Source: Psammoneis japonica | Taxonomy: Eukaryota | Direction: 5' to 3' | Assembly: GCA_008632985.1 (NCBI GenBank) | Contig: QPGO01000020.1 | Span: 186,001 to 250,000 of the forward strand | Length of the DNA stretch: 64,000 nt | Shown here: piece by piece, positions 9,805 through 56,021 of the stretch | Position numbering within the stretch: position 1 is the stretch's first letter | Layout: every line of letters begins with the position of its first letter | Program-made: the position numbers and the translations under genes | Notes under the pieces: generated by a model | What the model was told of the DNA's origin: nothing | What the model saw: only the letters and a program-made list of their open reading frames with translations | Databases searched by the model: none

Positions 9805-12469
9805 GGCACGAATTTGATTCCGACTGTTCTTTTTAGCGAAAGTTTCGATCTGGCAACGGTCTTTGTTGTCACAGTGCAGTAATATGCTGGCGATTTATGC
9901 TCTCCACTAGTCTTGGGTAGTTCCTCCCAGCGATGTAATCACGCGGCAGCAACCTGCTTTCTCATGGTTTTTCGCGACTGGGTGTTCCCGCAAGGAGCAG
10001 GAACAAGGCACAAAGGCACGTTGAGTTGTGCGTGACGGTTGCTAAGATGAATATATCCACGACTTAGAATAAAGATGAAATTTTCAACCACAACATATAA
10101 TTAAAAAAAATTTGGTATGGTTTGGATATCTCTCTATTTATCTAATAATACTTCTCCCGCCATTTTGCTCAACGGTCGCGTCGGTCTGTCTTTGCTCCAC
10201 CGCACCAAAAACGAGCGACGCAAGCCGCAAACACGACACTCTGACAACGAAACACACCGAACACAGTGGCGGGTCCTGCATGGGAACAACTCCAACATCG
10301 TGGAAATGAGTTTTTTCACGATTTTCTCTCACCCGCATGGCTGAAATCTGGCTTAAATCAGATTTTGTTATGACTGTCGTCATGCAGCAGGAGGAAAACG
10401 TTGGAATGCTCCATCCACAAAGCAAGACAGTGACGCCACCTCTTGCTTTTTGCTGGCAGCAACATGAGTGCAAGAAGCCAGCACACAAGGGGGGAAAACA
10501 GCATGCAATGACTTTGAACCAGCTTCATTTTGGGGCAAATTAGAAGCACAAGAGCATTGTTGGAAGCAGCAAGCTGTCACTCAAGTCATCTCCCGAGAGC
10601 CAGCAAAACAGCGCTTGCTCTTTTTCCTCTGCTGAGATTTCATTGGTCAAAACATCCACAGTGGGCCCATGTTGCTCTTTCCTCCAAAATTTTGCTCTGA
10701 ACTCACCCACAAATCTGCACCGGAAAAGCAGCGTGCCAGCGAGATGGCTGCAGCGGCATTTTTTGTGGCTGGCAAAGTCGGGCCACACACAAAAAAGGCA
10801 CTGAGAGAATGATGCCATGTTTGTGTCACAATCTCCAAACAATCAAGCCAAGCAATGAGCAGCTGCACAGCTGCAGCAATTTGTCTGCCCCACGCACATG
10901 TCCTGCATGGGGCTTGGTCATTGCATGGGTTCTTCTTTTCCCCTCATGCATCTTGAGCTTGGCTGCAAAGCAGAACGGTGCCATTGAAAACAAGTGCATG
11001 GAGCATCAAGCACAAGTTGAGTGGGGAGGCTGAGCTGGAGCTGCCATGTCTTGCACAGTCCATTTTCCAGTTGGCAAGTTTTCTTCTGCTCAGCTCACAT
11101 CACTCCGCCCACTCTGGAGTCTGTGTGTTGCTCTTTCTCATCACCCTGCTTGCCCCAGAGTTTGTGCAAAGAAGAGCAGTGTGTGCAGCAAAGTTGAGAG
11201 GTGCAAAAAAGCCAAGAGAGTGATTTGCTCATCACCTGTGATCAAGCTGACCAAGATCCTGCTCATTTGTCAGAACCACATTGCTGAGAACTTCATTTTG
11301 CTTTGTCATTTTTTGTGAGGCCCAAATGAGAACAATGACAAGCCATTCACATTTTGTGGCAGACTTGTGGCAAAGCAATGCAATTGCTGCTTGGCTGCAA
11401 GCTGCCCCAGACACCATCTCAAACACATGCAACAACATTTGCGGCCTCAGATCTTTCACTTCTTCTCTTTTTTGCCATGTTGAGCAGCCAGAGCTCAGCA
11501 CACACACTTGCGGAACAAAAGAGATCAGATGAAAAAGCCCATTTGTCAAAAAGAAGCCTCCTCTTTAAAGAGCAGTCTCTTTCTGCAACCCATGGATCAT
11601 TCCTCATGGCAAACAGTCTGTTGCAGCTGACATGTCACCCATGTGTTGGATCAAGACATTGTGGCTGTGCCAAGAAAAGAACTGCACACTGTTGAAACAG
11701 CAGTCAAATGGGCTGCAGACAGCGCCAGCTTCAGTTTGCCACAGTGAAAAGCACATGCAGCAAGTGCTTGACCATCTGAGCACACCACAAGACCATGTCT
11801 TTGTGAGTTGTGCCCACAGTCCTCAAGCTGTGCAGTGACTGAATGACCACTCAAGCACCACTTTGCATTGCTCTCATCAAGATTTCTTTGGCAAAACCAG
11901 ATGGGGTGGCTCTGTCAGAAGAACCAAAGTCCACCCACACACCAACAAGCACAGCTTTTTCTGCAGATCTGCAGCCAAAGTGGACAGGGCAAGATGACTG
12001 TGCATTTGTTGCTGAAGTGAAAAAAAGACAGCCACAAAAGAGCAAAAAATGGCACAGCTTGGGTGCAGCTGCACTCTTCTTGCAACAACTCAAGGCCCAA
12101 TGATGCAGCTCATGTGACCATGTCAGAAGCTTGGCTTGATGTGCCAACAAGAAGTCTCATGCATTTGGTGCGCAGCTTCTTTGGTGGCTGTGACAAGGAA
12201 ATGGCATCTCACAGGGACACAGAGCATGCAGTGTTGAACTTCCAACACAGACACAAGCTTGCTGAAAACATGTTTGGACAGAGAAGAGCAAGTGGCAGTC
12301 AGCAAAGAGCATTGCTCCATCAAAGCACCCCTTTTGATGTTGGCTCTGGATGCAAAGAGACAATGGGAGCAAGAAGAAGCAAGAGTGTTTCTTCAAGAGA
12401 TTTCCAGCTCAGGAGCACACATCTGCAGCAGGGATCTGAGCCAAGACAAAATCAACTGGACACTTCACT

Positions 12470-14012
12470 GAATGACTGTGTCTTGTTGTCCACAGCAGAC
12501 ACATTTGTTTGCAAATGAAGAGAGTGGAGACATGACATTGAATGCTTCAATGACCAACAATGTCAGATTTGTCAACCTCAGGGAGAAGGACATCCTCGTT
12601 GCTCTTGGGCTTTGCTTGGTCATTCATGACTGGCGAACCATCATGACTCAGCGACATCCATGTGATTGTTGCAAAATGTCTCATCAGCATCATCTTCATT
12701 GTGACCGCCTCTCCAATCAACTTGACAACAGTGCTTGCAGTCCACAAATGGCTGGGTGCAACAGGTGGAGAGTGCACAACATTGCACGGTTCATCATCAT
12801 CAGCAACACATTCTGTCTTGCACTTGTTGTCTTTGTGCTTTGTCATCCAATTCTTCATGAGCTGATCAAGTTGAAGATGTGGTTTGCCACCAATCCAAGG
12901 ACATTCACTGTTTGTCTGCAAAGACTTTGAGCAATGGCACAAATGGTTGAGCTGTTTTGTTGAACTCAGGGGAGACCACCGATTTGAAGATGATCCAGCA
13001 TGGGGTGAGGTTCTTGCATCCTTTTGATCCAGCATTCAAGGGTTGACTGCATGTGATGTGAAGGAAATTGCCAAGCACATGATTGCATCCAGGCCTGGCA
13101 ACACTGGACCAAAGGAAAGCAACATTCCAAGCAATGCAACCTGTGCTGCTGCCACTGATCTTGACAGGAATGCTGTCAATGATGGCATTTTTAAGAATGT
13201 GCTAGAGAGAACACACTCAAAAACTCTTCCACAGCCACCACCTCCAAGTTGCGCCATTGTCTTCAGAGCAAGCAACCTCAAGTGGAAAAAGCAGAACACA
13301 AGGTGTGAGCATGATGTGGATTTTCAAGATGAGCTGTCCAAGGACATTTTGTTTGCAGCCTGCCCAGATGCCCATGTCAAGCAAGGTGGCAATGAATCCA
13401 GACATGTGGGCCCACACTTCTCAAGCTCTGCCATGGCCGCCCTCCCTCTCATGACAAGATTTTGAGAAAAGCTGAAGGAAGGTGTTTCTTTGAAAGATTT
13501 GGGTTGATGAGGATTGATGGTTGCTGGGTGAGGTTGGCCTGCTGTGTTTCACAAGTTGAGCCCTCTGGCTGTCTTGAGGCATGAGAAGAAAGCAGGGGGG
13601 GTTTCATGTGGCTCCAAGGAGAGAGACATGCATTGTCAACTTTCCTGTTCATGCCGTGGGTTTCATTGACAAAAGAACTCCAAAAATCTGTCAGAGGATG
13701 CAGATGACCCAGTTCCCAGTTTTGTGCAACCACACAACAACTGTGCACAAGCTCCAGGGCAGGACAATTGAGAGCCTGGTTGTCAACAACTCAGACTGCA
13801 GAGACAACTGGGTTTTGTGTGGTGTTCTGTCTAGAGTGACAACAAGAAAGGGACTTTGTCTCAGAAAGAAGCTTGATGGCAAGAAAATGAAGGACATGTC
13901 ATTGGCACTGAATGAGTTCCTTGGTCACTTCAGGCACACAAGAGGGCTTCAAGAAGGCTCTCTGGCTGCTGCTGCTGCTGCTGCAAATGACTGTGCCAGG
14001 CACTGCAACTGA
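12470..14012 (+). mobile_element. Degenerate PIF1-family helicase, probably a Helitron-type relic
   Basis: Collinear frameshifted motifs: IVTAS...GATGGECTTLHG, ELRGDHRFEDDPAWGEVL, DRNAVNDGIF, QFPVLCNHTTTVHKLQGRTIESL and VLSRVTTRKGL. Confidence 0.72.
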
Positions 14013-16149
14013 AGAGTGCAATTGTTGGACATGGATTTTTAACACATCATGCAGTGGTCCTTGTCAGGTGCAGAAATGATGTGGTTGAGTTGTTTGTGCA
14101 CGATCCTCAGTTTGAAAGCAACCAAGTGATTGTTGGCACAAAAAGCACAAGATCCAAAAATTCATCTCTCAATGGAAAAGAAGTGATGCATCATGTTCGC
14201 CGATGCAGGCAAACAATTGAAAGACAAAAGTGACAGCCATTCAAACATTTGCAAACAATGACCTTGAAATGGAAAAATGGCCGATTGATTGGCCAGGAGT
14301 CAATGGCATCCCAGCCAGAAATGATTGATGCAACACGAAATTTGGCATTTTTTGTTGTTGTTGTCAGAGTGATTTTTGTGAAGTCCCAAAGCCTTCAAAA
14401 GTCATTGGATGCTTTTTGTGTGCAAAGACTGCTTGCAAATTTGACCATTTTGAAAGTGGTTGACCCCAAACCCCAGCTTCATCTCATCTGCCTGTCTCCG
14501 GCCACCCAGTTGGGGATCAGGGCAGGGGGGAAGACACAGATGAGTTTTGAAAGGTTTCTCACACAATGAGTGCAAGTGGTGCTTCTGCAATGTCTTGAGC
14601 TGTGCACATGGCCTTCAACATCTGGAAAACATTGTGGCTCTTGTTCAGACTTACCCTCTCTTGTTCAGAATTGTTTGTTCTTGACAAGTTGACAAGCCCT
14701 TGATGTTTGTCAACAAAGGGAGTTTAATTGTTGTTTCAACCTCCCAAGTGGGATTTAACAGTTGACACAAATGGGCCGCATTGTGCACACATTCTTGTCA
14801 GTTTTTCACATCGGCTCATTTTAACATCATTTTTGCATCCACCCACAATTGCACTGACCTTCCAAGCAGGAAACAACAGTTGACAAAACTTGTCACACTT
14901 GCGTTTGTTTCTGTCTCACTTGACAGCTGTGTGTTCACAACAACTTTCTGACATTGCTCGTTTCTGCCTGACAATGGTGATGTTCAACTGCGTTGTTAAC
15001 CTGATTGTGCATCGGCTGTGTGCTGCTCATCATCTGATTTGCAAATGTCCCATTTTGTCATTTCTACACTGCACACCAAACAATGCTCTCTTTTTCCCTT
15101 TCTTGTTTTTCTCCTGCGTTCCACTGGCTCCTGCTGTCCTTTGCAGTTCCCACACAATGGGTGTGATGTTTTGGTCCTTGTGCCCTCCCTTGCAACCACT
15201 CTCACTCTCTCCATGATTGTCTGCACCAGGCAACAACATTGCCCTGCAATGATCTGTTTTAAGTTCCTGTTGTGTGGCAGGCCAAAGCATCACCTGCAAC
15301 AAAAGAAAACTTTGTGCCAATGATCAGGTTTTGTGCATTTTTGTGTTTCTCACAATCTCATCTCATGTGCTGCTTCTGCTCACCTTTGCACCCTTTCCCA
15401 TTGCTGGTCTTCCATTGTTGCAGCTCAGGTCATGTGCCCAAATGTCTGTGTGCAAAAATGTGCACAAGTGTCAGTCATTTGCACTGCATGCCCGATCTCC
15501 ATGCACTCGCCACTTGTTTTTCTCACCTTGTGTCCTGCATTTTTTTCCATCCCATCCGCAATGATGCTGCTGCCTGTCCCCACAGCTTTCATTGTCAAGA
15601 CATTGGATGTCACTTGAGTTTGCTTTTTTTGTCTTGTGAGTGAGCAACAATTTGTGTTTTTGGCCAAAATGCAAGCCTGACCATCAGTTGATTCCTGTTG
15701 GCATCTCTTTTTCAGCAACAATTTTGTTCAAAAATTGATGATTTTGTTGCAACACAATGGTTTGAATGATTTGAAACTGCCTCAATGAATCATTCAGTTG
15801 TTGATGTCACACATGCATTCAATGACTTTGATTTCATCATGTTGGTGTGTTCTTGTTGAGATTGAAATTTTCACACTCATGCTGCACACTCCCAGCTCCG
15901 GGACCTCAATCAACACCTTTTTGATGTTTGGTGTGTTCAACAATTGCCGCTGCCACCAAGACAATTGCCTCTCTCCAGAAAGCTCAGAAACAGACCCTTC
16001 ATGCCAGTGAAATGACCAACTTTGGAGATGAATCTTGAAAAGAAAGTGCACAACTTAAAGGTGGGTCATGTGCTTCTGCTCTCTCTTGGTTTTCCGTCCA
16101 AACAAAAGACAGGGAACACCATGAATTTCCATTCACTGACTCCCTGCCC

Positions 16150-17530
16150 TGGTCATTGTTGGCTCCTCTGGGACACAATGGAGGCACTCAAGGCCATCCA
16201 AAGACAGCTGGGTGCTTGCACTGTCACATGGTGCAGAAAGCTCCCTTGTCTCTGCAGGTGAGGTGGCTGGGCCAAAGCAAGCCAATCACATCAGATGGAA
16301 AAGGGGCTGCATTGGTCCAAGACCAGGCTTTTCCTTCCCAGCCATTGTTGTTCTTGCCTCCTCAGGGACCCAATGAAGTCTCTTGTGACCATCCCAAGAC
16401 AACTGAGTGCTTGTGCTGTCACACAGACAGCTCCCTTGTCTTTCTTGCAAGTTGGTTCTTGGCTGGGCCAAACCCAGTCATGTCAGAGAGACACCAAGGT
16501 GCTGCACTGACACAAGACAAGGCCCTTGCTTCCTGGCCATCAGTGTTGTTGGCTTCTCTAGGATCCAATGAAATCACCAAAAGCCATCCCAAGACAACTG
16601 AGCACTTGCACTGTTGCACAGATGGTTCCCTCATCCTTCTTGCAAGGCGGTTCTTGGCTGGGCCAAACCCAGTCATGTCACAGAGACAAGGTGCTGCACT
16701 TGCAGAAGACAAGGCATTTGCTTCCCAGCCATTGTTGTTGTTGTAAAAAAGCCATCCTAAGACAATGGAGCACTTGCACTGTTGCACAGATGGTTTTCTT
16801 GTCCTTGCAAGTTGGCTGGCTGGGCCAAACCCAGTGATGTCAGAGAGACAAGGGGCTGCATTGACACAAGACAAGGTCTTTGCTTCCCAGCCATCAATGT
16901 CACTGCATTGTCTGGGACCCAATGGAGTCACCCAATGCCATCCCAAGACAATGGAGCAATTGTGCTGTCACACAGATGGTTTTCTTGTCTCTGCAGGTTG
17001 GCTGGATGGGCCAAAGTCAGCCACCATGTCAAAGAGACAAGGTGCTGCATTGATAAAAGACAAGGCATTTGCTTCCCAACCGTTGCTGTCATTGCATCCT
17101 CTGGGACCCAATGGAGTCATCCAATGCCATCCCAAGACAACAGAGCAATTGTGCTGTCACACAGACTTTCTTCTTGTCCTTGCATGTGGGGTGGCTGGGG
17201 GCCAAAGAACCCAGTTATGTCAAAGAGACAGGGTGCTGTGTTGACACAAGACAAGGCCTTTGCTTCCCAACCATTGTTGTCATTGCATCCTCTGGGACCC
17301 AATGGAGCAATCTAATGCCATCCCAAGACAACGGAGGAGCACTTGCACTGTCACACAGATTGTTTTCATGTCTTTGCAGGTGGGGTGGCTGGGCCAAAAA
17401 ACCCAGTCATGTCAAAGAGACAGGGTGCTGTGTTGACACAAGACAAGGCCTTTGCTCCCCAACCATGGTTGTTGACATGTCCCTTGCAACCCAGCAGAGT
17501 GCTCCAATGCAATCCCAACACAACTGCACA
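16150..17530. repeat. Tandem array of about seven diverged ~190-bp units
   Basis: ccatcccaagacaa...gctgggccaaacccagtcatgtca.agagaca...gacacaagacaaggc.tttgcttccca recurs near 16194, 16389, 16584, 16752, 16938, 17127 and 17318. Confidence 0.9.
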
Positions 17531-19241
17531 CCTCCTTTGCTGCATCTGTGGGCCTCATGCTTCCACACCTTGTGCAGCTGGGCATCTTCTTGTTTGTGAA
17601 GTGATCGTGCAACGGGGAAGCTGCTGCCCAAGACATGTCTTGCAACTTCCCAAATCAAGAGTGCAAAGACACCACAATTGAGCCAACACACTCAACAAAT
17701 GCAGACTGAGTGCATTTGGGGTGCATGTCATGAAGGCAGCAACTCAAACCAATGTGCATTTGAGGCAATGATGATGATCTGGCCAGGCATTTGGCAAATG
17801 TTTGCTGGGACATGGGGACACCACCACATTCTCCATTTTAGCTTCTCAAATGGAGTTGGCCTGTGTGCCATGCACCATCCACCCAGCAAGCCTGTTGCTC
17901 CAACTTGAGACACCAAGACATGTCATCAAGCTCAACATCAGAATGAACCCCTTGGAACTGAGGATTTGTGGCTGATGAACTCTGGCCATTGTCTTCATTT
18001 GCAGCAATGGTGACAGGGAAGAAGATGAAACAATCTTCCCAGTCTCTGTCATCTGGCAGTGGCTTTCTAAGCAGTGGAGCCATTGCTTGCTTCATGAGAC
18101 ACAAAGACCATGCCATGGCAAGTTTAAATCTAAGCTGCTCCTCTTCCTGCTGGTGTTCCCAGTGTTTCTCTTCCTGAAGCACTGGGGGTGTGCTTTCCAA
18201 AGTCATCATCAGGGTTGAGGCCAAAATGAACAAAGAAAGAAGAACACTGGAGATGACTTTGAAAATGTCTTTGGAGAGCATGCTTGTTGTTGTTGTCATT
18301 GTCACACATCCAACCAGGACAACAAAGCGGATTGTGACAGGGGCATGCCATTGTTGCTGTTGGTTGTTAGATCGGAGGATGAGTTGTGCAGTGTCCAGCA
18401 GGAAAAAAGGACAGGTGCAGCAGAGACAGAGTAAAGCAAAGGCAGAGAGCTGACAAAATGGAAGAAAAAGGAAACAAATGAAGCTGTTCTTGAGAGGTTT
18501 AAAATGAGCCACACAGGCAACTAAAACAAAGGCAGAGATCTGACAAATGGAGGGGGGGGGAATGAATGAAGCTGTTCTTGACAAGAGTTCAAAATGAGGA
18601 CAAAATGAGCAACACAGGCAACTTCACACAATGCTTTTGGGCCATGTCTGCATTGCCATTGCTGTGATTTTTGACAAAAATGCTCCTCACACCAATGAAA
18701 TCAATTCTTTTTCTTTCCCAAATGCAGACATGCACCGCAACTCAAGTCAACCATGGGATTGGTTGCAGCGGCAGCAACATTTGACACCAAGTGCAAAAAA
18801 CACCTGGAGAGCATGTTAAAATGTCATTGTGATTGTGAGGTGTGTGTCCCAAGAAAGGCATCTTCATTCAAAGCCTTTGATCATCATCTGAACTTTTCAC
18901 TCTCATCTTCTTTGTTTCTTCTGCATCGGACACTGCAGCAAATGTTTTGAAGGTCTAAAATGGAGTGCACTGTGCAGACACCCATGACTTGGATGGCACA
19001 TTCTAAAAAGATGACAGAGAAAGGCATGCACTCTTTCTTTGGTTTTGTTTTCCATGTCAAAAATGGAAGCAAGCGTGGCAATCCTTGCCTGTCACGATCA
19101 TCTGTGGCAATCAATTGCCTCAATGCCTCAATGTCTGTGTCAATCAATGCAAAAGTTTCAATCAATGGCTCAAATGTCACCCTCTGTGACTTAAGGAGAC
19201 TGTCCAGGGCAGTTGTCAGGTGTCAAAAATTTGTGCGAGTT

Positions 19242-19517
19242 TGACAGAAATTGAAGGCAAATGGCAAGAATTCAAACAACAACTCCTCACTGCTGTCTAA
19301 ACAGCAGATGAGTCTCCGCTCAGAGACCGTTGCAGGAGCCGAAAGACGTGTGAGTCGGTGTGATCGGGCTACTGTTGTTGTTCTTGTGAGCCTTGTGGCT
19401 CGAAAGCAAACTACATCGTGCGTGAACGCGCAGAACTAAAGCACACAAAACTGTGCGCGGTAAACTAAACAGCGCGCGACACTTCGCGCGCATCCAAATC
19501 CTGTTCAAATCCTGTCA
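19242..19517 (-). repeat. 3' LTR of the copia element
   Basis: tgacagaaa...aaatcctgtca; 266 of 276 positions match 26080-26355 in manual alignment. Confidence 0.97.
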
Positions 19518-22500
19518 CTCCCCAGTTTGCTTGAGGAGCCACAGAAACAGATTCGACTTCGGATGGAATGAAGTTCCAGAACATGAGGGGGCGGAGAAGG
19601 TCCCAGATTTGGGAGTGACCCCAATGCTTGCTGAGAATGTCAGCAGGGTTGCGGGAGCCTTCGATGAAGTGGAACTCAAGGTAACCAGAGGCAATTGCCT
19701 CACGCACACGGTGGAACGATAGTGCGGTGTGTCGCTTGTGTAACTTGGAGTGCGGGATGGTGGCACTGTCTACAACCGACTTGTTGTCACCGAACATGCA
19801 ACCAACATTGCGGATCGGGATGCCAAGGCAGCGCAGGGTGATGCGCAGGTCGATAATCTGCTCAACACAATTCCTTGCGGCAACAAATTCAGATCCACAG
19901 GTTGCAGTCTCCACGGTGGCTTGTTTCTTGGAGAACCAATCAGCCGGGAATTTGTTGAGGAAGTGGAGCATTCCCATGACAGAGCGTCCGGTGAGCATGC
20001 AATGGCACAAGTTTGCATCGACGCAGTGGGTGGCAGTGACGAACTTGCCAAGGGGCGGTGGAGCGTCCTTCGGGATCATCTCTTCTGCTTCACCATACAC
20101 GGAATGCATCCATTCATGGGCCGGAGCAGGGAGATCCGAACAGTCGGGCTCTTCCGTGCGAACGCGGAGAGCACCGTGTCGCATCTTGGAGAGGCACCCA
20201 CAGACGTGTTTGGCACGATCCAAGTGGCCTTGACGGGGCGCAGCTCGGAAGCTAGAGAGTGACATGACAGCCGTGGCAATGTCAATTCGACCAAGGGACA
20301 CTGCCCATTGGAGTGAACCAACAAGAGACTGGAACTTGTGAATGCCATCGGGTCCCAGCAGTTTGGAAGTGTCCAGTTCGGGGTGGTCACCCTTCTCTAG
20401 AGGTGACAGGGCGTTGGTGGCAGGTTTCTCCCCAAACAGTCGGGCGCAACTGTCGACCATGCGCTCGATGTACTTGCGCGGAGACAGGCACAAGGTTCCG
20501 TCGGGGTCCCGGGAAAAGTCGCAACCCAGATGGAACTCAATGGGTCCCGCACCCTTGAGCTTGAACTTGCACTTTTCCGTGAGAGTGTCGACGAAAGATT
20601 GAGGGTCCTTCATGGCAATGGCGAGGTCATCCACATAAACGGCAATGCATTCACAGTGGTCGCCGTTCCTGCGCATCCAAATGTCGGGTTCGGCGCGGCA
20701 GGGGAAGAAGCCTTCAGCTCGCAGGCAGTCGGCGAAGTGCTCGTGCCAGCGGAGACCGGAGCTGCGCAGTCCATGCAGTGCCTTGTGGATGACAAGGATG
20801 TGTCCTTCGAGTTTGCCAAATTCGGGTCCAGCTACAATGTAAAGCTTCTCCTTGGTGGTGGCTTCAAGGTGGGCATTGCCAATGTCGGTGGCCCATGTCT
20901 CCAGCTCGTTGAGTTCGGCCAGGAAAATCATCAGCCGAAGGCCACGGAGGGAGACTACTCCGGAGTAGACACTGTCGACAGGTACGTCCGTGAGGTGCCC
21001 GTCGGCTACGAGTCGTGCCTTGTGGCGACCGTCGTGTTTCACGTCGCACACCAGGTGCACTCGGATCTTCTTGTGTCCCGCAGGAGGAGTGGAAGACTTG
21101 AAGGGCCCGCAGTCATGGAAGACTTTGCATTCGTCGAGTTGGTCCATCTCGAGATTAGTTGCGTCTCCCCACTTGCGGTTGCCGTTGCGTTCGTCCAGTG
21201 ACATGGCGTGTTTGCAGTTCCGGGGAACTTCGTATCCGCACTTGTGGCGAGGTGCAGTGCGGAAGGAGCGAAGCTTGGCTTGGTTGGCCATGCGAAGTGG
21301 CTTCTTTTGGCGCCTCGCGACAGTGCGGAACCGCTTCCAGCCATCCGTGTCGAGGAGTCCGTTCTCTCGTGCATAGATGGCACAGGTGACGGGGTCGTCC
21401 TTGGCGATGATGGCAAGAGGCTCGGACGTGATCTCCCCACTTTCCCATTCAAGCATGATGTTGTAGCTTGAGCCTTTCCAGGTTGGGTCGTGAGGCTTCA
21501 GAGGTCCTTCGTGTGATGCGATGCGTCGAAATTTCCAAATGGTGGTGTCTTCGTCTTCTTGCTCAATGTGATTCATGATGTCATTGCAGGCAAGGACTTC
21601 CTCGTATTCGTCATTGTTGACAGAGCAGACGAACTTAGTGAGCTCGGGATTGCCGTTCACTTTCCATTCGTGGTCTTCGACGGCCTTGACGATGCGAGCT
21701 CTGTGGCGTTGTCCGTCCTCTTGTGGCTGCATGAGGAAGGTGCGTCCAATGATGTCTTGCGGATCGAAAACTGGCATCTTGGGTGTCCTGATCTCCCCAT
21801 CAGGAGAATCGACGGGGTTGTCGTCATGGCGAGATTTGATGATGGGTTCAGGTGGCTCCCCATCAGGAGGATCAAGACGCAGGTTTCGAACGGCAGGATC
21901 GGGGGCAGCGGAGCGAACGTTGGACCGGCAGAGGATCTTCTGAGTCTCGTCAGATAGGATCTTGAAGGTCATCTGGTGGCCGACGTGCTCAGCAATGCCA
22001 ACGAAGCGTCCACACAACTCACGGGATTCGGACGGCCAATCAGAGTCATCGAGGTGGAAGTGCACTGGTTCCCACCAGTGAAAGCGAAGCAATGGGCTGA
22101 TGTCCGGGGTGGATCCAGTGAGAGTCTCGAGGGGCGTGCGCCAGTGGAGACGTGGGGACGCTGTGTGGTTGAGCATGAAGCACACGTGCATGAGCGCCAG
22201 CAGCCATGTGTGGGCGGGCGAACCAAAACGGTCCATGACAGTGTTCGCCATGCGCTTCACGGTCTGGCATCGACGCTCGGCAAAGTTTTGGTGTTGCTGG
22301 TGAGGCTCACTTTGCCAGCTGGAGATGAAGAGGGCGCGTGGGATCCCGAGCACTTTGTTGCTGATCTCAACTTGAGCACGGTCGCTAATGAGTTTGGATG
22401 GGGCACCACGTTCACGGATCTGATCCTCGAGTGTGTTGACAAACTCTTTGTCCGTCTCAGTGCCGCAGACGTCAGTGACGGTAGACTCGGTGCCAACAAA

Positions 22501-25134
22501 CAGTTGGGCGCTGGTGCAACCAGAGTCGACGGCCGGGGTGTCGGCACAAACGGTGTCAGTGGCGATGGGCTCGTTGCGGCGGTGCACATTAAGGGCGGGG
22601 TTGGGTGATTTGCAGGCCTTGCGAAGGTGTGTACCGGCGGGCATGCGGGCGCACTGCGTGGTGCAGTCAAAAGTGCGACGGACCGCATCGGTGGGTGGGA
22701 AGCCAAAGTGAGGCCGAAGAGACTCGAAGGGGGGGTCCTTGGGCTGTGCAGTGCGCTCCGGAGGTGGAACGTCATCGCCCTGGGGGTCAATCGCATGTAG
22801 ATGACACTCGGAGAACACGTCGTCGTTCGGAATGAGGTGATCATCGAGGGCGGACGCGTGATCGGCAGACAAGGAAGCGGACAAGATGGTCTCGTTGACA
22901 ACGACACGGTGACGGCAGTTGCCGCATTCGTCAAATGGGTTGGCGGTGGGATCGTCCTGTGGGTCAGAGATCGCGTCGCACCACTGGTCGTCGTCAGTGA
23001 CAGAGTGATCGAGGACGGAAGGGTCCCATGTGTCATCACCGGTGAGGATGACATGGGGCAGGGTGTCCCATTCGGCGTCAGTGTAAGGTCGCATGGCAAC
23101 ATGAGGCAGGCCAGCCTTGATGTCAATGGGGATGACATAGCCATCAGGAGTGGCAATGCGTTGCAAGCCGTTGGGCACCTTGACAGAGCGATCGTTGACA
23201 TCCTGTTTGCACCATTCGAGCTGGCCACAGGAATGGATGGTCTTGCCCTTTCCCGTGCATGCGCACTGATGGAGGATGGCGATGACGGGACCACGCTGGG
23301 TCTCAATGACGGCACCAGCTGTGACAATGGGGATGTCCACCAATTGGTGATCGTCAATGCCCTGAACATCGACTTGGCGAGAGGTGCGTGCAATGACGCG
23401 AACGTCGTCGCCAGCAATGCCGCCGTTGGCCCCACGATCGACCAGAGCACCAGTGCGTGTGGAGCGATGAGCAGAGGCAGAGCAAATGACATTGTGGTTG
23501 TTGACGCGGCGGCAAGTGCGGCCATTGAGTTCCATGTCATCTGCAGAAGCTGGCGGGGCAGAGGAAGCGGCGGATGGCCCCGGTCAACTGGCATTGGGGG
23601 CTTGGTTAGGAGACAACAGACGTTGCAGATCACCGGGTGGCAGTGGCTTGCGCTTGGTGAGGTGCGCCAGGATGGGATCATCCGAAGTGGCGTCCACATG
23701 TGGGGCGGAGTCACCAGAGTCAGCAGGAGTCGTGTTGGACAAGTTGACATCACCGTCACTCCCAAGGCGTTGGTCGTGAAGGTTGGCCGCAACAGACTCA
23801 TGGCAGTTGCTGGCTCGCGGGTTGCGGGGAGGTGGACGAGAATGCTCAAGGATGATCGCCTTGGAGGAATCGGGCAACGAATCCCAGAGCCGTTGGTGGT
23901 CGGGAGGGAGACGTCTCCATTGGACACCGGTGAGGCTGGGACCGCGGGTGCAGGCAGCATTGGCTTGAAGGACGTCAACGTCGCTGTCAATGTCGTAGAA
24001 CACATCGTCGGACGGTTCCTCGGAGTGGACGTCGTGTGCGTGTGTGGCGCATCGGGGAGCTCGAGGTGTCGTCTTGGGTTGAAACGTGCTGTCGCACTGA
24101 GCTGCCGCGGAGAGGAGCAAGCCACAGTGTTGATCGCATGTGAGGCTCTTGCCACTCTGCGTGCGATGCTGATCAGCTTGGTTCTTGACAGCACGGAGTT
24201 CCTCGACAGGGTGCATGGCATTCTCGAGCATGACGCGCTTCTGTCCTTCAGAGAAGTGGTCACTGGCCGGGATGAGTGCCTCGCACTTGCGCAACTGATC
24301 TTGCCAATGAAGGATGAACCCGTGGGTCGGACCTTTCCAAGTGCCATCACCAAGACGTGCGGTGGTGAGGCACGTGAGCAGGGTGGAGGACTCGACAGAT
24401 GCGCGGGTGGAGGCAAGCGCGCACTCAGACAAGGAGCGGCAGACGGTCTGTGCGTCAGAAGACCCCACATTTTCGCGAATGAGAGCCTTGCCCTTGTCGG
24501 TGAGAAGGATGCGTTCGAAGACGGCAAACATGTGCTTTTGCTGTTCAGCAAAGAGCAGTTTGTCTTCGGGGCTGGTCGGTTTGTACGACGAGTCTAGAAT
24601 GCACTCGACGTCTTGGGCACGGGCTTGTGCCACAAGTGAGGTGTGCCAAGTGTGCCACTGCTTGTCGGATTTGAGAGCCGTGAAAGCGGTGGGATCACGC
24701 TTGATGCCTCGCTTGAAGTCTCGCACCAGGTCGCGTGCCTTGGTCGGGTTGGTGACATGTGGAGGTGCAAGGGGTGAGCTGCCGATGGACACAGAAGACA
24801 TGCAGTCGGGGCTGAGGCGGTGGGCAAGGAACTCGTCATGCGCGAACAAAGAGGAGTCGTTGGCAACGTCAAGACCTTTGTGTGCTTTGACAATGCACAG
24901 ACTAACCAGTGCTGCCAACATGTTCTTGTAACCACGGGGCAAAGGGATTGCATCAGTGCCGTTGTCATGCTCAAGCGAGTCGATTTGGGACGGCATGAAC
25001 GTGAACAGTTCCTGATGCGAGTCCGTGCCGTCTTGGGCCAAAGCCAAACGAAGAGGACTCCCAGCACCTTGGGCAAGCACGGTTCCAACAACATGCTCGA
25101 AACCATCGGTTTGTTGCTGACGAGTGAGAACCAT
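19465..25134 (-). pseudogene. Copia gag-pol polyprotein, single frame interrupted by one TGA (23586-23584) and riddled with Tyr->Cys/His changes
   Basis: ORFs 23584-25164 and 19465-23535 are in the same frame. Protease LVDRGANGG, integrase IATDT...ISDRAQ...QNFAER, RT KARLVA / DIGNA / AVYVDD, RNase H FSKKQATVETA.GSEF and NPADILSK. Confidence 0.93.
19518..19530 (-). promoter_or_regulatory. Polypurine tract
   Basis: Minus strand GCAAACTGGGGAG lies directly before the TGACAGG start of the 3' LTR. Confidence 0.7.
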
Positions 25135-26064
25135 GGCAGACAAAAGTGGTGTCAGGACAATCAATTCTGGTTGGGAAGCGAAGGCAGACTCGAAACTTGG
25201 GTGAGAACAGACTTGACTTGAAACAGACTTGACTTGAAATCTTGAACTATCTTAAAATCAGAAGTCGCCGGGCTTTGTCACCCCGTTCGTTGTTGAGTGC
25301 TAAACTTCCCATCCGGTCCGCAGAGTTGTGCCGGCACGTCCGAACCCGCAGCCAGCGGCGCTTTGGGTTGCTTGCGAGCGGAGCAGTGGGTTGCAAACCC
25401 CTGCAGGTGAGCTGACTGGAGGTGGACAAGACCCCCGAACCGTTCTTTTTTTACATCAGTTGGATTTCCCGATCAGGCTGGCCAGTTGATGCAGGCGTCA
25501 GGCACTGTGGACGAACGAACAAATGCGGGAAAGCACCCTCGCCCCAACGCAGGCTGCAATCACGGCCACTTGCTCTCACAGTCGTCCTCGTGGACCTAGT
25601 GGAACTGTAGAGCACCAGTAGTCCGGGGTAGATCAGGTGCAATGGACTCGGTGTGCTTGTAGAGTGGCAGCAAAACCGTAGTCCGAAGAGTGGATAAAGG
25701 TTCTTGGCCGTGAAGATATGTATATATATATGTGTATATGTCTTCAGCGACTAAGATCCTTGAATGTGTAGGGTTCTTGACCGTTAACCGAGGAATAGGT
25801 ATATCAAGGGATGTTGATCAAGGATAGACTTGGATATGACCGTTGAATATAAGTCTTCAGCGACCAAAGGTAGTATAATCAATCCAGATATCCAGCGGTA
25901 AGGAGACTTGACGGTGACGTTAACTTCCTGCCGATGCCCTGGTATTGAATGCGCGTAGACTTGCCGATGTATGTAGAATATATACGGAGGTCCACGTAGA
26001 ATTGAAATAGCGTCGTTGGTAAATCAACGACGACGATGGCGGTTGCTCAATGGGTTGACAATGA

Positions 26065-26079
26065 GCAAGACTGTTAATC
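26065..26079 (-). promoter_or_regulatory. Putative primer-binding site complementary to a tRNA-Asn(GTT) anticodon arm
   Basis: The plus strand next to the 5' LTR reads GCAAGA-CTGTTAA-TC, the pattern of an anticodon stem with a CT-GTT-AA loop; no TGG (CCA-complement) follows the LTR. Confidence 0.55.
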
Positions 26080-26355
26080 TGACAGAAAATGAAGGCAAAT
26101 GGCAAGAATTCAAACAATAACTCCTTACTGCTGTCTAAATAGCAGATGAGTCTCCGCTCAGAGACCGTTACAGGAGCCGAAAGACGTGTGAGTCGGTATA
26201 ATCGGGCTACTGTTGTTATTCTTGTGAGCCTTGTGGCTCGAAAGCAAACTACATCGCGCGTGAACGCGCGGAACTAAAGCACACAAAACTGTGCGCGGTA
26301 AACTAAACAGCGCGCGACACTTCGCGCGCATCCAAATCCTGTTCAAATCCTGTCA
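26080..26355 (-). repeat. 5' LTR of the copia element
   Basis: Direct repeat of 19242-19517, followed by the TSD GAGTT. Confidence 0.97.
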
Positions 26356-29300
26356 GAGTTCCTGAGGAGCCGCGAGCAGTTGGACATCGGATCCTGTGAA
26401 CATGCCAGCTCCAACCAAATTGATTCAGAGCATGGCTTGCATTGTTCATGTTGTCTGCAAAGAGGTGTTTTCAAGTGGTCAACACTTCCAAGATCAGGAT
26501 CAAACTGCAGAAAATGCTGCCAGTGACAATTGAATGACAACAGCTGGCCAGAGCCCTTCTGTTGGACACCCATTTTCATTGTTTTGCATGCACGGAATGA
26601 TGCGCAATTTGTCAGCTGTCAACAATGTGGGTTGAACACTGTGCAGCATTCCAGGAAGCATCTGCTGCACAGAAGGACATTGAACATGAGCAACAGCAAG
26701 AACCAACAAAGACAATCAGCGCCATTTTTAAACCTGAAAGGTGGGTTTGATCCAGGACTTGGTGAGTGTGCAGGCAGCTCTCTCTGCCAGGCTCCAAGCA
26801 CTGGAAATCATCGCTGCAATGATGAGAACGGCTTTGTCAAAGAGCAGTGTCATAAAGTGCTGTGTCTCAAGAGTCTTGTCAACTGACGCATTGTGCAAAG
26901 CTTGCTTGAGTGCCTTTCAGAAACATGTCGCCAAGCTCACTTCCCTTCACCACAACAGATTGAACCAGCAGACTGCAGCACACAGAGAAAACACTCATGT
27001 GAGCCACACAGGCAACAACTTGAACAAAGGCAGAGATCCGACAAATGCTGGAAGGAAAAAACAAATGAAAGTGTTCCTGACAAGTGTTTAAAATGTGGAC
27101 AGAATGAGCCACACAGGCGACTTAAATTGAGCAAAAAAGATTCATTTCTGCTAAAAAACAAAATTGGCAATTGTGTGTGTTGAAGATCTGTGGATGCAAG
27201 CAGCACGCATGTGAACAATTTCAATCATTGACAAGTTGCACTCTCTTGTCAAGTGCAGAAACTTGTTGTGGACAAATCAAGTGCAAGTCAAAATGTCAAG
27301 AACAAGCAGTTGATCCAGATGAGCAAACTTTCAAGAGTTGTGCAGAGCCTCAGTCTGTGATGGCTCTCTGCCCTTTGCAGCTGGAGCTGCCCAGCTGGGC
27401 TGGCAAAAACTCTGAACAGATTTGTCAGTGCTGCTGGCAGGCACTTGGTTGCCTTCTGAGACAGCTCTGCCAGAACTTCTTGTGGCACACGCACACACCT
27501 CTGGGGGCTGAAAGGCACCCACTGCTGGTCTGAGAGAGCAGGTCTTCTTGTGAAGTGTTGCAAGGCATGCATGTTGACGGAGCTCTGGCAACCTCCATTG
27601 GAGAGATGTGCCACCCAAGTGGCAGCTGTGGTGGGCTTTGTTTGCACAATCTGGTCACTGCTTGCACCTGCCACCTCTGTCATGACTCTGCAGCAAAACA
27701 GTGCAGGAACAGAGTGCGTGTGTCTGCTCTCTTCACACAACTTTGGCTTTGCTCAAAGTGCGCACATTTGCAGTCAGAGCACCCTCCTTGTCATTGCACT
27801 GTTTCTGTGCACATGTGTCACACTTGAGAACAAGCTGACTGTGATGAAAAATCTGCTCAAATCTGAGCCACATTGCCCCTGCCTTCTCCTCAACTTGAAA
27901 CTTGAGCCATCACCCAAGCACAACCTGTGCACTGCTTTGCCCCAGCTCCTCCTCCAATCCTGCACTTTTGTGCGCACACTTCTTTCCACCAAACTGACCC
28001 AACAAAGGACAAAGATGATGGTGCATTGGTGTGCTGGGTGTGTGCAGCAACATGAGGAGAGTGCAGCAGAGCATGACACTTGTTTGAGCAGGGGGGCAAT
28101 GGAGCACCATCAAATGAAGCATCTGTGCAGCTGGAGGAAAGCTCTCTGTCATCTCCACTCCCTTGTTTGCACTCTTAACATCATCTTGCCACCTCCTCCT
28201 CCTCCTCCTCCTCCTCAGAGGTTTTGGCTTTGTTGCTCAGTCAGCTTGAGCCATTGGGAACTCATGGGCTCTTGTGCTGTGCTCTTGTGCTTCAACATCT
28301 TGCCCCACTGTGACCTCCTCTTCTCCCCCAAACACAATGTGGTGCTCCCCTCATCATCTGAGCTGAGCTCCCTTTTCTTCACCTCAGCATCTCCCAAGTT
28401 GTTGAGCTGCTGTCATTGTGAACATTTGTGCATCATTTGCAATTTTTGAATTGCTCGCTTCTTTGTGTGTGTGCCTCATTTTTGGCAGGCACCTGCTGCT
28501 GAGCTGCTGTCTCCAGAGAGATGACCCACTGCAGGCATTGCACAGGGGTGCCTCTGCATTGCCTCTGGGATTGTTGGCTTCAATGCTTTGCAGATCTCCT
28601 GCCCATGTGACAGTGCATGATGTGTTTTTGTTGACCACTCATTGTGTGACAACAAGAAATCAGCAAATGCCTGCCACAGACACACTCCTGAAGAACATTG
28701 CACATTTTTCATCTGCCCAAAGAACATTTCTGCATGACTTCCACATGCACCCATGGCTTCTGCACAGTTTTCAGTGCAAAAAATCACAACTTGGCACTCA
28801 CACATGATGATGGAAACCTTCCACCAAGCAGGAGCAAACACAGCACTTTTGTTCAAAAAGAAATTGCACAAGGCACACAAACCCAAGATCTGGAAAGAAT
28901 CTCTAAACATGTGGGCTTGTTGCCATCCCACAGGAAGCTGGTTGACAGGCGAGACAGTGAAGATTGCCTTGGCTCTTTCCTTGTTCTAAAAATGACAATT
29001 GAGTGCAAAGAGGCAAAACTGGCAAGACAGTCTTCACATTGACTTGAAACCACTCAAGGAGTGTGGAATTGGGGCAACAAAGTGGACAAGGGCCATGGTT
29101 CAGCAAAGCAGCAGTGGCATTGATGCTGATGGGAGCATTTGACAGAAAGTGCACAATTTCAAGAGATGCAGCCACTCTTGTGAAACAAAATGCCAAAACA
29201 ATCTGGCCTCTTGAACAGAGCTCAAGAAATGCAACAACCGGTGGTTTTGAGCTGCTGCTTTTGCCACTGATTTTCTGACAGTTGCTTGGGTTTGACAGCA

Positions 29301-31693
29301 ACACTCACAAACTGATCTGAGCACAAAAGCAAGGAGCCATCAGCATGACAGCAGCTTGTTGAGCTGTGATGGGGAGCAGACAGGAGAGGATCTGCAAGGT
29401 GCCAGTCAGATGATTCATGGACAGTTTTTCCAACGGCACTTGCCAGAGTCAAAGCCAGCAACAAACTGCAACATTGACAAAGCCTTTGTGCCCCTCTTTT
29501 GTTTCCACATGCATGGCAACAGCACCCAGAGCCATCCACAACACATGGACATTTTCAGTTGATTGCTGGCCTGCCAGCCCCAAACTAGACAGCAAGGTGC
29601 TGCACCTGGGCACCTTCAAAAGTTGCAGCTGCCTGTGTCTTGTCTGTTCACAAAAATGACAGAAAAGATGGAGCAACAACATGGGTGAGAAGAGTGAAAG
29701 TGTGCCCAAATCAACAAAACAGTCAATTGAGGGTCACATCTCCATGTGGTTGTGCACAGGCCATTCTGCCCAAAACATGTGAGTGACCCAAACACACCTT
29801 GAAGCCAACACAACAAACCTGGTGCCACACTGCTCACTGATCATGCTCCCATTTCAATGACACAAACCTGTCTCAGGGGTTAGAAGTGCAGAGCAAAGAA
29901 GACAAAGCAAATGAAACACTGCCAAATGACAACAACAACATCATCAGCACACAGCATGATGCCAGCTCAGCAGTCATTGATGTGTTTGTCCAGAGTCACT
30001 GCATCTGTTGTGAAACAATGAACACACATTTGACAGCAAAATGGAGACAACATTGTGGATGTCTCACCTGTTGCAAAGATGAGGTGACAACAGCAGAAGC
30101 AATGCAAAAGTGCCATGGCTGCTGCTGCAGCAATTTTGTGCAGAGCACAGTGCAAAAAATGGCGCCTTTGTGTCACACCACATTTTCCAGTTTTCATTCT
30201 TTGGGCAGGTTGGCTCAGTGTGTCAAATGTGTGATGATCCATGGGAGATTTTTTTCTCCCCCTTCTCACACAAATTGCAGAGCTGCTGAGAGGAGCACTG
30301 TCTTTCAATGACTTTGGCATCATTTTTGGGTCTGCTGCCATCACAGAACAGCTCATGTCTGCTGAAGAATTTTTCTTTTTTCTGACAATTTTTTGCACAC
30401 TCATGAATTGTCAGTTCTGCTGTCATTTTTCATGAGTGTGTCAGCAAATGTGTGTCCAGTTTTTTTCATTTTTCTGATGATTTTCATGTGCTCAAAATTG
30501 TCAGTTTTGTTTTCATCCATGCACGGGCATTGCCACACACACATCCCAAGCCTTTCATTTTTCCAGTGATTCTGATGGAGTTGAAAATGAAAAACAAATG
30601 CTGCAATGATGCAACAAGGAGGCAGTGATGACAAACCTTCTGCAGGCCCCACCTTCCTTGCTGCCTCCCCTTGCCAGCCCATGTTTTCTTTGCTCACTCT
30701 TCTGTGCCCACCTGGCCAACTGCCTGTCATCTTTCCAGCTCACCTTCTCTCTCTCTCTTCTGTAAGCTGCATGTCCTCACCACCACCCCCTGGACCTTCA
30801 CTCAATGCTCTCTGTGTCTGTGTGGTTGCCACACTGCCCTCTTGATCCTTTTGGCAACCATGCCTTTTTGTGCACCAAGATGCGCACAACAAAAGCCCCC
30901 TGTCCAGGCATGCAAGAGAGAGAGAGAGAGAGAGAGAGAGGCGCCATCTGAGCCCCCCCCCTTCTTGCATGTCTTCTTGCTCAAACCAACAGGCTTTTTC
31001 TCCCACTGCCCTTTGGGGCATCCTGCTGATGTTGGCACATGACATGTCCCCAGATCCACCCCTCTTTGTGCCCCTTCTGCGCACCATTTTCTTGCCATTG
31101 CTGCTGCTGTGCCTTGACTCTTCTTCATCCTCTGTGTCTCATTTGCCTGCCCCAAAACGACCTCCTTGCCAATGCTCAAATCAGCTGTGCCCAGGAGGAC
31201 AAGCTCCTTGGGTGCGACACACCAGCCTCCTCACATGGCTCCTCCATCGTCATCGCCTCTTTCAGCCAAGCCAGCCCCCCCCCCCCCCCTCCCCTTTGCA
31301 GTTGACCACATTCTTGGGGGCATCGGGTGCCATTTTCATGTGTTCTCCCACTTGGGGCATCCAAAGTTTTCTCGCCTCCTCCACCTGGGCTGCTCCTCTC
31401 CTGTCCCCCTCCTGAACCTCCCTGGACTGACTCTTTTGACACCATTCTGGCTCTTCACGGCCCACCAAGCCTCCCTTTTCGCTTCTCGCTCCCCCCAGAT
31501 CTCCTCAGCCTCAATCTTGGTGTTGCCCTCTCTGATCATCTCTCTTCCCTCACATCTCGCCTCTGCCGCATGATGCAGCAAAGACGACTCCTTCCCCCCT
31601 TCTGTCCGCACTTCCCATGCCCGCTTCGCCGCGCCCGCTGCGCGATCACGCATGTTGGCTTGACATGGAGTTGAAAGTTGGAACACAGTATGG

Positions 31694-31880
31694 AAACGCC
31701 ATGAGCAGTCCAAGCAAAGAGGTTTTTCTCGCCCCGTTCAATCCAACCTGCGAGCACGCTCAGGACGTTGCCCTCGGCTTTCTAAAATTGACTGGCAAAG
31801 ACGTTTTGTTTGATTTGGGTTGTGGTGACGGTCGTTTACTTGTGAAAGCAATTAGGCAAAGCCCTGTTGGTCTACGTTAA
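31694..31880 (+). pseudogene. 3'-truncated duplicate of the methyltransferase gene at 40002
   Basis: 31694-31878 matches 39995-40179 with one mismatch (DLG versus DMG codon), then hits TAA at a junction. Confidence 0.92.
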
Positions 31881-51400: not shown

Positions 51401-51700
51401 AAAGTGAAAGGGCAATGGAATGAGCAGTTGGAAGGGCGATTGGCAATCGTGGAAACTGGGGGCCGGTAGAAGGGGCGTAGAAATGTACAGGCGAGAGGAG
51501 CGAAGGGAGTGACCGAAAGGGAATGAAGAAAGGAGACGATGGCAAAGGTAAGAACGGTAGGGAAAAGGATCCGCAAAAAGAAGGATGGCCATGGCGGAGG
51601 GTCGGGAGGCCACTTCGGGAGGTGTAGCAAAGAGCTACTGCATCCATCATGGGACGCCATCGTCATACGAATTACCATTTATGAAGGGAAAGGAAACATG
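45480..51700 (-). mobile_element. CRE-like non-LTR retrotransposon (zinc fingers, RT, restriction-like endonuclease), frameshifted; ends approximate
   Basis: C2H2 fingers CPFC...HLCQEH and CRHC...HLQNKH; RT motifs LRPIGVG..LRR, QFGIG, LDLVNMFN, GFAQGCPLGP and GSYIDD (about 47530-47545); CCHC plus RLE motifs CPCG...GDHAFSC, RPADV and AVDVTV. Confidence 0.9.

Positions 51701-54219: not shown

Positions 54220-56021
<1,802 letters not shown>

Follow-up and report, generated by a model that had tools for sequence, protein, structure and literature searches.

TA-type differences between the long terminal repeats of a Ty1/copia element of Psammoneis japonica: a probable footprint of TpA-specific hypermutation of chromosomal transposon DNA

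A preprint recently described TpA-restricted hypermutation in Bigelowiella natans, where it affects integrated DNA of giant viruses and virophages (Mettrop et al., bioRxiv 10.64898/2026.01.13.699255). In mutation-accumulation lines of this alga, the mutation rate of two integrated viral regions exceeded that of the remaining genome about 1000-fold. Of the 231 changes recorded in these regions, 230 were A-to-G or T-to-C, and every one of the 230 lay at TpA, giving TpG or CpA. The long-term signature reported in the same text is a clustered TpA depletion together with a gain of CpA+TpG. Among coding sequences poor in TpA, reverse transcriptase and DDE endonuclease domains were over-represented, and the authors propose an ADAT2-like adenine deaminase (10.64898/2026.01.13.699255). 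The present study deals with a stretch of 64,000 nucleotides from Psammoneis japonica (assembly GCA_008632985.1, contig QPGO01000020.1, positions 186,001 to 250,000), hereafter the window, in which a Ty1/copia retrotransposon carries two long terminal repeats (LTRs) that differ mainly at TA dinucleotides. With good probability, these differences were left by a hypermutation that converts A:T to G:C specifically at TpA and affects chromosomal transposon DNA on both of its strands; the whole case rests on this single 64-kb window. It is best filed as an apparently unreported diatom example of what was lately described for B. natans, a hypermutation of integrated DNA restricted to TpA. No report of diatom TpA hypermutation was found in a full-text literature search (subscription journals lay outside it), nor in term searches of two papers on diatom transposons (PMC2806351 and 10.1101/2025.10.24.684338).

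The two cases resemble each other in the changes themselves (A-to-G or T-to-C at TpA, with both TpG and CpA as products), in the resulting composition (TpA depletion with CpA+TpG gain) and in their restriction to foreign or repeated DNA next to an ordinary genome, observed here within the window, where neighbouring genes have normal TA. They differ by their host, a diatom (stramenopile) instead of a chlorarachniophyte (rhizarian), and by their targets: the DNA affected here belongs to an LTR retrotransposon, to another retroelement and to a 14-kb island of no recognisable identity. Erasure is also far fuller: TA observed-to-expected ratios (obs/exp) were 0.02-0.19 in 2-kb windows across the island and the mutated interior of the element, against 0.45 for the giant-virus region of B. 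natans. Furthermore, CpG loss coincides with TpA loss in old DNA, and a sharp internal border spares the 5' LTR and leader of the element. Finally, mutation was seen in real time in B. natans, whereas the present case is known from its sequence signature alone. The host is taken to be a diatom because an ATP synthase beta-type gene (54220-55659) is closer to proteins of named diatoms (92-93% identity with Conticribra, Stephanocyclus and Cylindrotheca) than to those of the non-diatom ochrophytes Triparma and Phaeomonas (86-87%).

The element is organized as follows (positions are those of the window, as throughout).

19237-19241, no strand: left target-site duplication GAGTT, perfect over 5 bp
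19242-19517, minus strand: 3' LTR (left copy), 6 TA, TA obs/exp 0.35, with CA or TG at the seven TA-type sites and TG or CA at two CG sites
19465-23535, minus strand: pol frame, RVT_2 domain, conserved Tyr replaced by Cys or His along its whole length
23584-25164, minus strand: gag-side frame, with an ATG at 25134 that matches homologues
26080-26355, minus strand: 5' LTR (right copy), 13 TA, TA obs/exp 0.72, apparently unmutated, TATA-like GATTATACC (sense) kept
26356-26360, no strand: right target-site duplication GAGTT, perfect over 5 bp
19242-25500, no strand: TA-erased tract, 0-6 TA per 250 bp, which takes in the 3' LTR, pol and gag and reaches into the leader
25501-26355, no strand: spared 855 bp, made up of the 5' LTR with an adjoining stretch of about 580 bp of leader, about 64 TA/kb, with an intact (TA)5 run

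The LTRs form the only long direct-repeat pair in the region flagged by the first-pass annotation (19242-19517 and 26080-26355, 276 nt each, 96% identity) and their termini read TGACAG...CTGTCA. Because of the perfect GAGTT target duplication, these TG..CA ends and a purine tract (..ctggggag in sense orientation) adjoining the left LTR, both LTRs are assigned to one insertion, that of a Ty1/copia retrotransposon as judged from its sequence features. Both gag (25134-23584) and pol (23535-19465) lie on the minus strand, which makes the right LTR the 5' one. The pol frame (1356 aa) matched Pfam RVT_2 with E = 1.9e-26, and no integrase domain exceeded the Pfam threshold among the frames of this mutated copy. 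A single TGA (23586-23584) splits the two frames, which form one frame of about 1860-1900 aa in homologues; one of these (P0003, 1859 aa) aligned over residues 1-1850 in one tblastn segment spanning 25134 to 19555. Altogether, 1833 homologues were found in metagenome protein sets, the best among the matches listed being 71% identical over residues 300-1300. The name "diatom CoDi-like" is taken from PMC2806351. No second copy of the family was detected within the window by tblastn with a homologous polyprotein, and a 27-nt word from the LTR end had no match in metagenome, genome and viral contig collections.

The LTRs were compared by direct-repeat search, MAFFT alignment and a base-by-base check (positions and bases are given as left copy/right copy). 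The alignment contained exactly ten mismatches and no gap. Three were C/T differences with CA in the left LTR and TA in the right one (19280/26118, 19288/26126 and 19302/26140, in the contexts caaYaac, cctYact and aaaYagc), and four were G/A differences with TG in the left LTR and TA in the right one (19332/26170, 19360/26198, 19362/26200 and 19380/26218, in gttRcag, ggtRtRatc for the two middle ones and gttRttc). Two further transitions concerned CG steps of the right LTR, which read TG (T/C at 19419/26257) and CA (A/G at 19432/26270) in the left one, and the tenth difference was a T/A transversion (19251/26089). The first-pass annotation had counted the same ten differences and had quoted these contexts for the seven TA-type ones. 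Its statement that the 5' LTR carries TA also holds, the minus-strand orientation making this the right-hand copy, and its warning that LTR dating would be inflated was borne out by a divergence of 3.6% overall (10/276) versus 1.1% (3/276) once the TA-type sites were removed.

If changes were evenly spread, the probability that at least seven of the nine transitions fall at TA positions (26 of 276 sites) would be P = 2e-6; with the opposite polarity, the same clustering at the 47 CA or TG sites of the LTR has P = 1e-4. TA occurred in the same (right) LTR at all seven TA-type differences (two-sided binomial P = 0.016). With TA taken as ancestral, all seven non-CpG differences in which an A:T pair of one copy faces a G:C pair in the other sit at TpA, four having become TG and three CA. 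The polarity of the LTR sites is only indirect because no other copy of the family was found, and was approached through the coding interior.

For this purpose, gag and pol were aligned to 60 full-length homologues, taken in order of id from the sequences above 1700 aa in a list of 120. Columns were considered conserved when the same residue occurred in at least 80% of the 60 homologues, which gave 749 columns. The present copy deviated at 87 of them, and the commonest replacements were Tyr to Cys (20) followed by Tyr to His (7), i.e. TAY to TGY (TA to TG) and TAY to CAY (TA to CA). Of the 38 columns with conserved Tyr, 20 read Cys in this copy, 7 read His, 8 had kept Tyr and 3 held another residue. 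Cys or His therefore made up 27 of the 30 replacements, and at most three Cys or His were encountered at these columns in every one of the 60 homologues. There was no change in the opposite, RIP-like direction (see below) at conserved codons: His was kept at 28 of 29 columns (the remaining one being Asp) and Cys at 6/6, with no replacement by Tyr in either case, and Gln (20/21 kept) and Trp (22/24 kept) were never turned into stops. Conserved Arg had become Cys or His at only 2 of 55 columns, CpG decay being slight in the copia interior. The last change that could be polarised by protein comparison lies at about 24372. By this evidence, TA would be the ancestral state at the seven LTR sites as well. 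The ratio of Tyr-to-Cys to Tyr-to-His was 20:7 in the interior, against 4:3 for the corresponding changes in the LTR, strand bias being mingled with neighbour effects in these figures.

TA loss was confined to a tract with a sharp border. TA density per kb reached 40.4 in the background, 3.1 in the old island, 6.7 in the mutated element (19518-25500) and 64.3 in the spared end. Counts per 250 bp rose from 0-6 (19251-25500) to 15, 24 and 13 in 25501-26250, the border itself being marked by a jump from 0-3 to 15-24 within about 150 bp, between the last sparse TA at 25452 and the dense TA from 25597 onwards. GC content was about 0.57 in the element interior versus about 0.48 around it. In the erased part CG was kept, with obs/exp of 0.90-0.93 while TA was at 0.11-0.45 (2-kb windows 20001-26000). 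Since the interior has intact CG and erased TA, TA loss is separate from, and much faster than, CG loss; the process removed TA on both strands, raised GC and left CG alone on the timescale of the element. With the polarity proposed above, the 3' LTR would have started with 13 TA and 21 CG steps and lost seven and two of them, respectively, all nine transitions giving CA or TG. Loss per TA step (7/13, in one lineage) would be about 100 times that at other sites (1/208 non-TA, non-CG sites, in two lineages), a factor that hinges on a single transversion.

The 7:0 asymmetry of the LTRs arises because TA loss spares the last 855 bp of the element, including the 5' LTR. TpA/ApT was 0.91-1.0 and TA obs/exp 0.72-1.06 in the spared LTR and leader, the leader displaying obs/exp of 1.06 for TA, 0.91 for CA and 1.21 for TG. 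Sparing of the 5' end may be due to protection of the promoter and leader, to tract-wise action, or to later conversion from an intact copy. The leader between the gag ATG and the 5' LTR (25135-26079) is unusually long, about 945 bp, and its sequence adjoining the LTR (sense gattaacagtcttgctc) seems unlike the primer-binding sites of copia elements.

Repair of the right end is the alternative that fares best. Hypermutation would then have had the same polarity, but both ends would have been TA-depleted, or the element would have arrived depleted, and the asymmetry would be due to the right 855 bp having later been overwritten, by gene conversion or through an assembly switch, from an unmutated copy. 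The LTRs would then simply oppose a mutated to an unmutated copy; we regard this as rather unlikely. The abruptness of the TA jump speaks for such a replacement, all ten differences could be those between donor and recipient, and the intact target-site duplication is compatible with conversion. Yet no donor copy was found, either within the window or with the 27-nt LTR word in the metagenome, genome and viral contigs. Moreover, the ends of the second retroelement (see below) are also TA-normal, over about 1.1 kb at its 5' side, suggesting that sparing is intrinsic to the process, and it is unlikely that a chimera with two switches inside 855 bp would restore both the exact junction and the target duplication.

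Repeat-induced point mutation (RIP) of fungi is directed at transposons and produces dinucleotide-specific transitions on both strands, in tracts that are recognized by diagnostic dinucleotide ratios (in fungi, TpA/ApT of at least 0.89 and (CpA+TpG)/(ApC+GpT) of at most 1.03). If RIP-like C-to-T changes at CpA or TpG had affected the 5' LTR, its ancestor would have had CA or TG and the right copy would have gained the seven TA. The LTR differences by themselves are not polarisable; in addition, the spared leader scores 0.91 and 0.96 on the two indices (whose thresholds are fungal) and the right LTR 1.00 and 1.09, thereby passing the first threshold only, against 0.59-0.68 and 1.18-1.27 in the background. 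This reading was weighed against 79 related loci retrieved from metagenomes by the peptide patterns TVETATYG and TLRYLGVP[IV]. In the LTR and leader region of 16 related elements, median TA obs/exp was 0.78, median TpA/ApT 1.17 (range 0.64-1.94) and TA density 35-76 per kb, so the composition of the spared LTR and leader is normal for the family. The 5' LTR (0.72) was close to the whole-locus median of 0.69, whereas the 3' LTR (0.35) fell below the minimum of 0.44; as an ancestral state, the latter value would undercut all 79 related loci. Likewise, the sole TATA-like motif of the LTR, which reads GATTATACC in the 5' copy and GATCACACC in the 3' copy (sense), would have to be a product of mutation. 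The interior, with 0/29 His and 0/6 Cys turned into Tyr and 0/21 Gln and 0/24 Trp turned into stops, and the rest of the element and island, which lost TA, all changed oppositely. RIP is thus alike in being a tract-wise, dinucleotide-specific transition hypermutation of both strands of chromosomal transposon DNA, but it makes TpA from CpA, lowers GC and creates stops, whereas here TpA is destroyed, GC is raised and TAA and TAG are removed, leaving long frames on both strands. A RIP-like origin of the LTR differences is accordingly very improbable.

The related loci further illustrated how uncommon this composition is among them. Whole-length TA obs/exp was 0.29 for the present element against a range of 0.44-1.02, and 1-kb windows with TA obs/exp below 0.25 amounted to 89 of 253 in our window versus 1 of 1310 in the related loci. 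None of the 79 showed TA erasure. TA-dominated LTR differences were not found either, TA-type differences making up 0-31% in six related repeat pairs with at least 94% identity and at least six differences (a repeat of L013, at 65% identity, was excluded since it is not an LTR pair). These loci nevertheless give no measure of prevalence elsewhere, because the fetch patterns contain Tyr, because numerous short repeats (111-127 bp) that sit at the ends of contigs, five being 100% identical, resemble assembly overlaps, and because L056 and L059 are parts of a single contig.

Outside the element, TA loss was found in the following features.

10150-31750 (approximate), no strand: intergenic island of 21.6 kb, with the copia element inserted inside and flanked by ordinary open frames
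16159-17580, no strand: tandem array inside the island, a unit of roughly 190 bp repeated about seven times, the copies being 62-95% identical
45800-50700, minus strand: TA-poor tract of the second retroelement, TA obs/exp 0.17-0.26 (2-kb windows 46001-50000)

Outside the element, the island contained 3.1 TA per kb versus 40.4 in the genic DNA of the window. In 2-kb windows, its TA obs/exp was 0.02-0.16 (genic 0.45-0.75), its CG obs/exp 0.04-0.45 (genic 0.88-1.15) and its CA and TG obs/exp 1.5-2.0 (genic 1.0-1.4). The sequence is complex and not a simple repeat. No credible domain was found by a Pfam search of 32 island open frames, the lone match (Hemotin, E = 0.0026) being under the cut-off. 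Both borders, at about 10150 and about 31750, are sharp and adjoin the flanking open frames. Within the window, the signature is restricted to transposon and intergenic DNA. In the tandem array, the commonest double difference between copies was CA versus TG at one dinucleotide. Pairwise comparison gave 98 such cases, whereas AC versus GT, taken as control, gave 18; in terms of alignment columns the figures were 16 and 6. This is the pattern expected from independent decay of one ancestral pyrimidine-purine (YR) step, TA or CG, on either strand.

The second retroelement consists of minus-strand frames between 45505 and 51678, with a weak RVT_1 match (E = 7.6e-5) under the Pfam cut-off. Eight Tyr columns were conserved in at least three of its four homologues; four of them were Cys in this copy and two were kept. 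Normal TA density was maintained at its ends, including about 1.1 kb on the 5' side.

A sequencing artefact, in which modified transposon DNA led a long-read basecaller or consensus step to miscall TA and CG, would dispense with mutation altogether. TA and CG are indeed the two self-complementary YR steps and typical methylation contexts. However, miscalls on both strands would sometimes give Arg codons (CGY) at Tyr columns, and none was found at the 38 conserved ones; CG is intact inside the TA-erased copia interior; the old island, with no credible Pfam match among its 32 frames and hence without recognisable protein homology, and the tandem copies that are 62-95% alike are what real, old mutation would be expected to leave; and the same signature was present in Illumina mutation-accumulation data of B. 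natans. An artefact is very improbable as an explanation of the locus.

ADAR A-to-I hyperediting of RNA and APOBEC editing of cDNA act before integration and on one strand, and they leave the same changes in both LTRs; APOBEC editing gives G-to-A or C-to-T. They have in common with the present case that hypermutated retroelement copies become fixed in a genome, ADAR also sharing the preference for a 5' U/T neighbour, but here the LTRs differ, both strands are affected and DNA other than retroelements is included. Although A-to-G in TA context fits the neighbour preference of ADAR (discussed in 10.64898/2026.01.13.699255) and sense-strand A-to-G exceeds its counterpart (20 Tyr to Cys, 7 Tyr to His), pre-integration editing of the element's RNA (ADAR-like) or cDNA is the least credible alternative of all, since LTRs that share their templates cannot be made to differ in this way, both strands were hit (four TG and three CA in the LTR, seven Tyr to His in the interior) and erasure extends to unrelated flanking DNA and to a tandem array at the DNA level.

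The first-pass annotation had likewise used the joint occurrence of TA-to-TG and TA-to-CA as an argument against one-strand editing, and the 4 + 3 changes of the LTR together with the 20 + 7 of the interior agree with it. It had also held TA to be ancestral rather than a product of RIP-like C-to-T; interior polarity, family composition, surroundings and the TATA-like motif lend this indirect backing. Its third proposal, that the changes arose after insertion in chromosomal DNA, is supported as well, by the polarity and by changes on both strands, although a strictly in-place origin would not follow if gene conversion had reset the right end; the polarity would stand in that case too.

Several points weigh against TpA-specific hypermutation of the element in place. 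The ancestral state of the seven LTR sites was deduced and not observed directly. The occurrence of 7/7 changes in one LTR (P = 0.016 under equal rates) calls for an extra assumption, namely that a tract ended there or that gene conversion followed. Mutation of the interior may already have taken place in a source copy, prior to insertion. There is a bias in the comparison with related loci, as the patterns used contain Tyr and hypermutated relatives would have been missed. Finally, the test on the second retroelement comprises only four homologues and eight columns.

On the hypermutation reading, the copia element would have inserted into an island that was already TA-free and CG-free. Change of A on one strand would then turn TA into TG, and change of A on the other strand would turn TA into CA. 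Most TA steps would have been removed in this way from the 3' LTR, via pol and gag, to about 25500, whereas the 5' LTR and the adjoining 580 bp or so of leader would have stayed as they were. A slower and separate decay of CG to TG or CA, most simply deamination of methylated CpG, would account for the two CG differences of the LTRs and for the long-term CG loss of the island. The two LTRs of a retroelement are identical at integration, being copied from the same templates in reverse transcription; on this ground, and because the tandem array and unrelated flanks are also affected, the process is considered to act on chromosomal DNA. As to the chemistry, the most likely route would be the one proposed for B. 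natans, in which deamination turns adenine in DNA into hypoxanthine, a base that pairs with C. Targeting might depend on silenced or foreign chromatin, the promoter end of the element being protected or later reset.

Diatom transposons carry CG methylation, and methylated CpG is prone to deamination in silenced transposons. This known process is alike in that it explains the two CG-to-TG/CA differences of the LTRs and the CG obs/exp of 0.04-0.45 in the island, but it cannot remove TA, and the young element had its TA erased with CG still at 0.90-0.93.

A broader proposition, at which we would stop somewhat short of even chances, is that diatoms possess a transposon-directed defence mutator, a TpA-specific A-to-G editor operating at the DNA level in sharp-bordered silenced domains and sparing the 5' end, and that it is the same system as in B. 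natans, old and widespread in the stramenopile-alveolate-rhizarian (SAR) assemblage. Such a mutator would be the chemical mirror image of fungal RIP and, together with methyl-CpG decay, would drive dead transposons to a TA-free and CG-free end state rich in CA and TG and with long false frames. A TpA-erasing mutator would also be extended from one alga, known from one 2026 preprint, to diatoms, which are ecologically dominant and genetically tractable, and its enzyme and targeting would become open to experiment there. Dating of diatom retrotransposons by LTR or consensus divergence assumes the substitution rate of the genome as a whole, as is done in a 2025 preprint on diatom transposons (10.1101/2025.10.24.684338). 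LTR-divergence and copy-to-consensus dates of such elements would be overestimated (here 3.6% versus 1.1%), and repeat content would be underestimated because old targets lose all detectable homology.

Long overlapping open frames are another consequence of the erasure, since TAA and TAG are nearly gone from TA-erased DNA. Six-frame counts of stops were 226 TGA, 26 TAG and 18 TAA in the mutated part, versus 454, 220 and 204 in the background. Examples in the copia element are a frame of 764 aa on the minus strand (22257-24551) and one of 598 aa on the plus strand (22801-24597). Such double-strand frames, in 19465-25164 as well as in the island (10150-31750), are by-products of TA loss and not genes, and dead elements with very long frames on both strands, such as these, can be annotated as genes.

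The island retained 43 TA steps in its old parts (10500-19241 and 26356-31500). Seventeen of them were in TTAA and 14 in CTAA or TTAG, i.e. 31/43 versus 12% of background TA, and none was left in ATAT, ATAC or GTAC. These contexts hint that the mutator may prefer certain flanking bases, or that TA is regenerated at such places. As 5/7 of the mutated LTR sites also belonged to the NTAA/TTAN class, the context effect would be a difference in rate at best. The CG-poor part of the island (about 10450 to 31200-31450) was slightly narrower than the TA-free part, which reached about 300-500 bp further on each side (10150-10450 and 31200-31750), and the two decays may thus have slightly different borders.

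Among the related loci, six (L049, L019, L007, L028, L011 and L065) displayed CG obs/exp of 0.17-0.24 and CA/TG of 1.4-1.7 with TA only at 0.48-0.53; they are cases of CpG decay without TA erasure. The region of the second retroelement (45500-51900) further distinguished itself by a strong purine skew on the plus strand (GC skew about 0.4, AT skew about 0.3, GC 0.53-0.59), for which TA loss does not account. No LTRs or inverted repeats were found in it. Three long frames (770, 640 and 680 aa from stop to stop) lie on its minus strand, with four distant homologues, and the region is probably a non-LTR or otherwise unusual retroelement with a very pyrimidine-rich sense strand.

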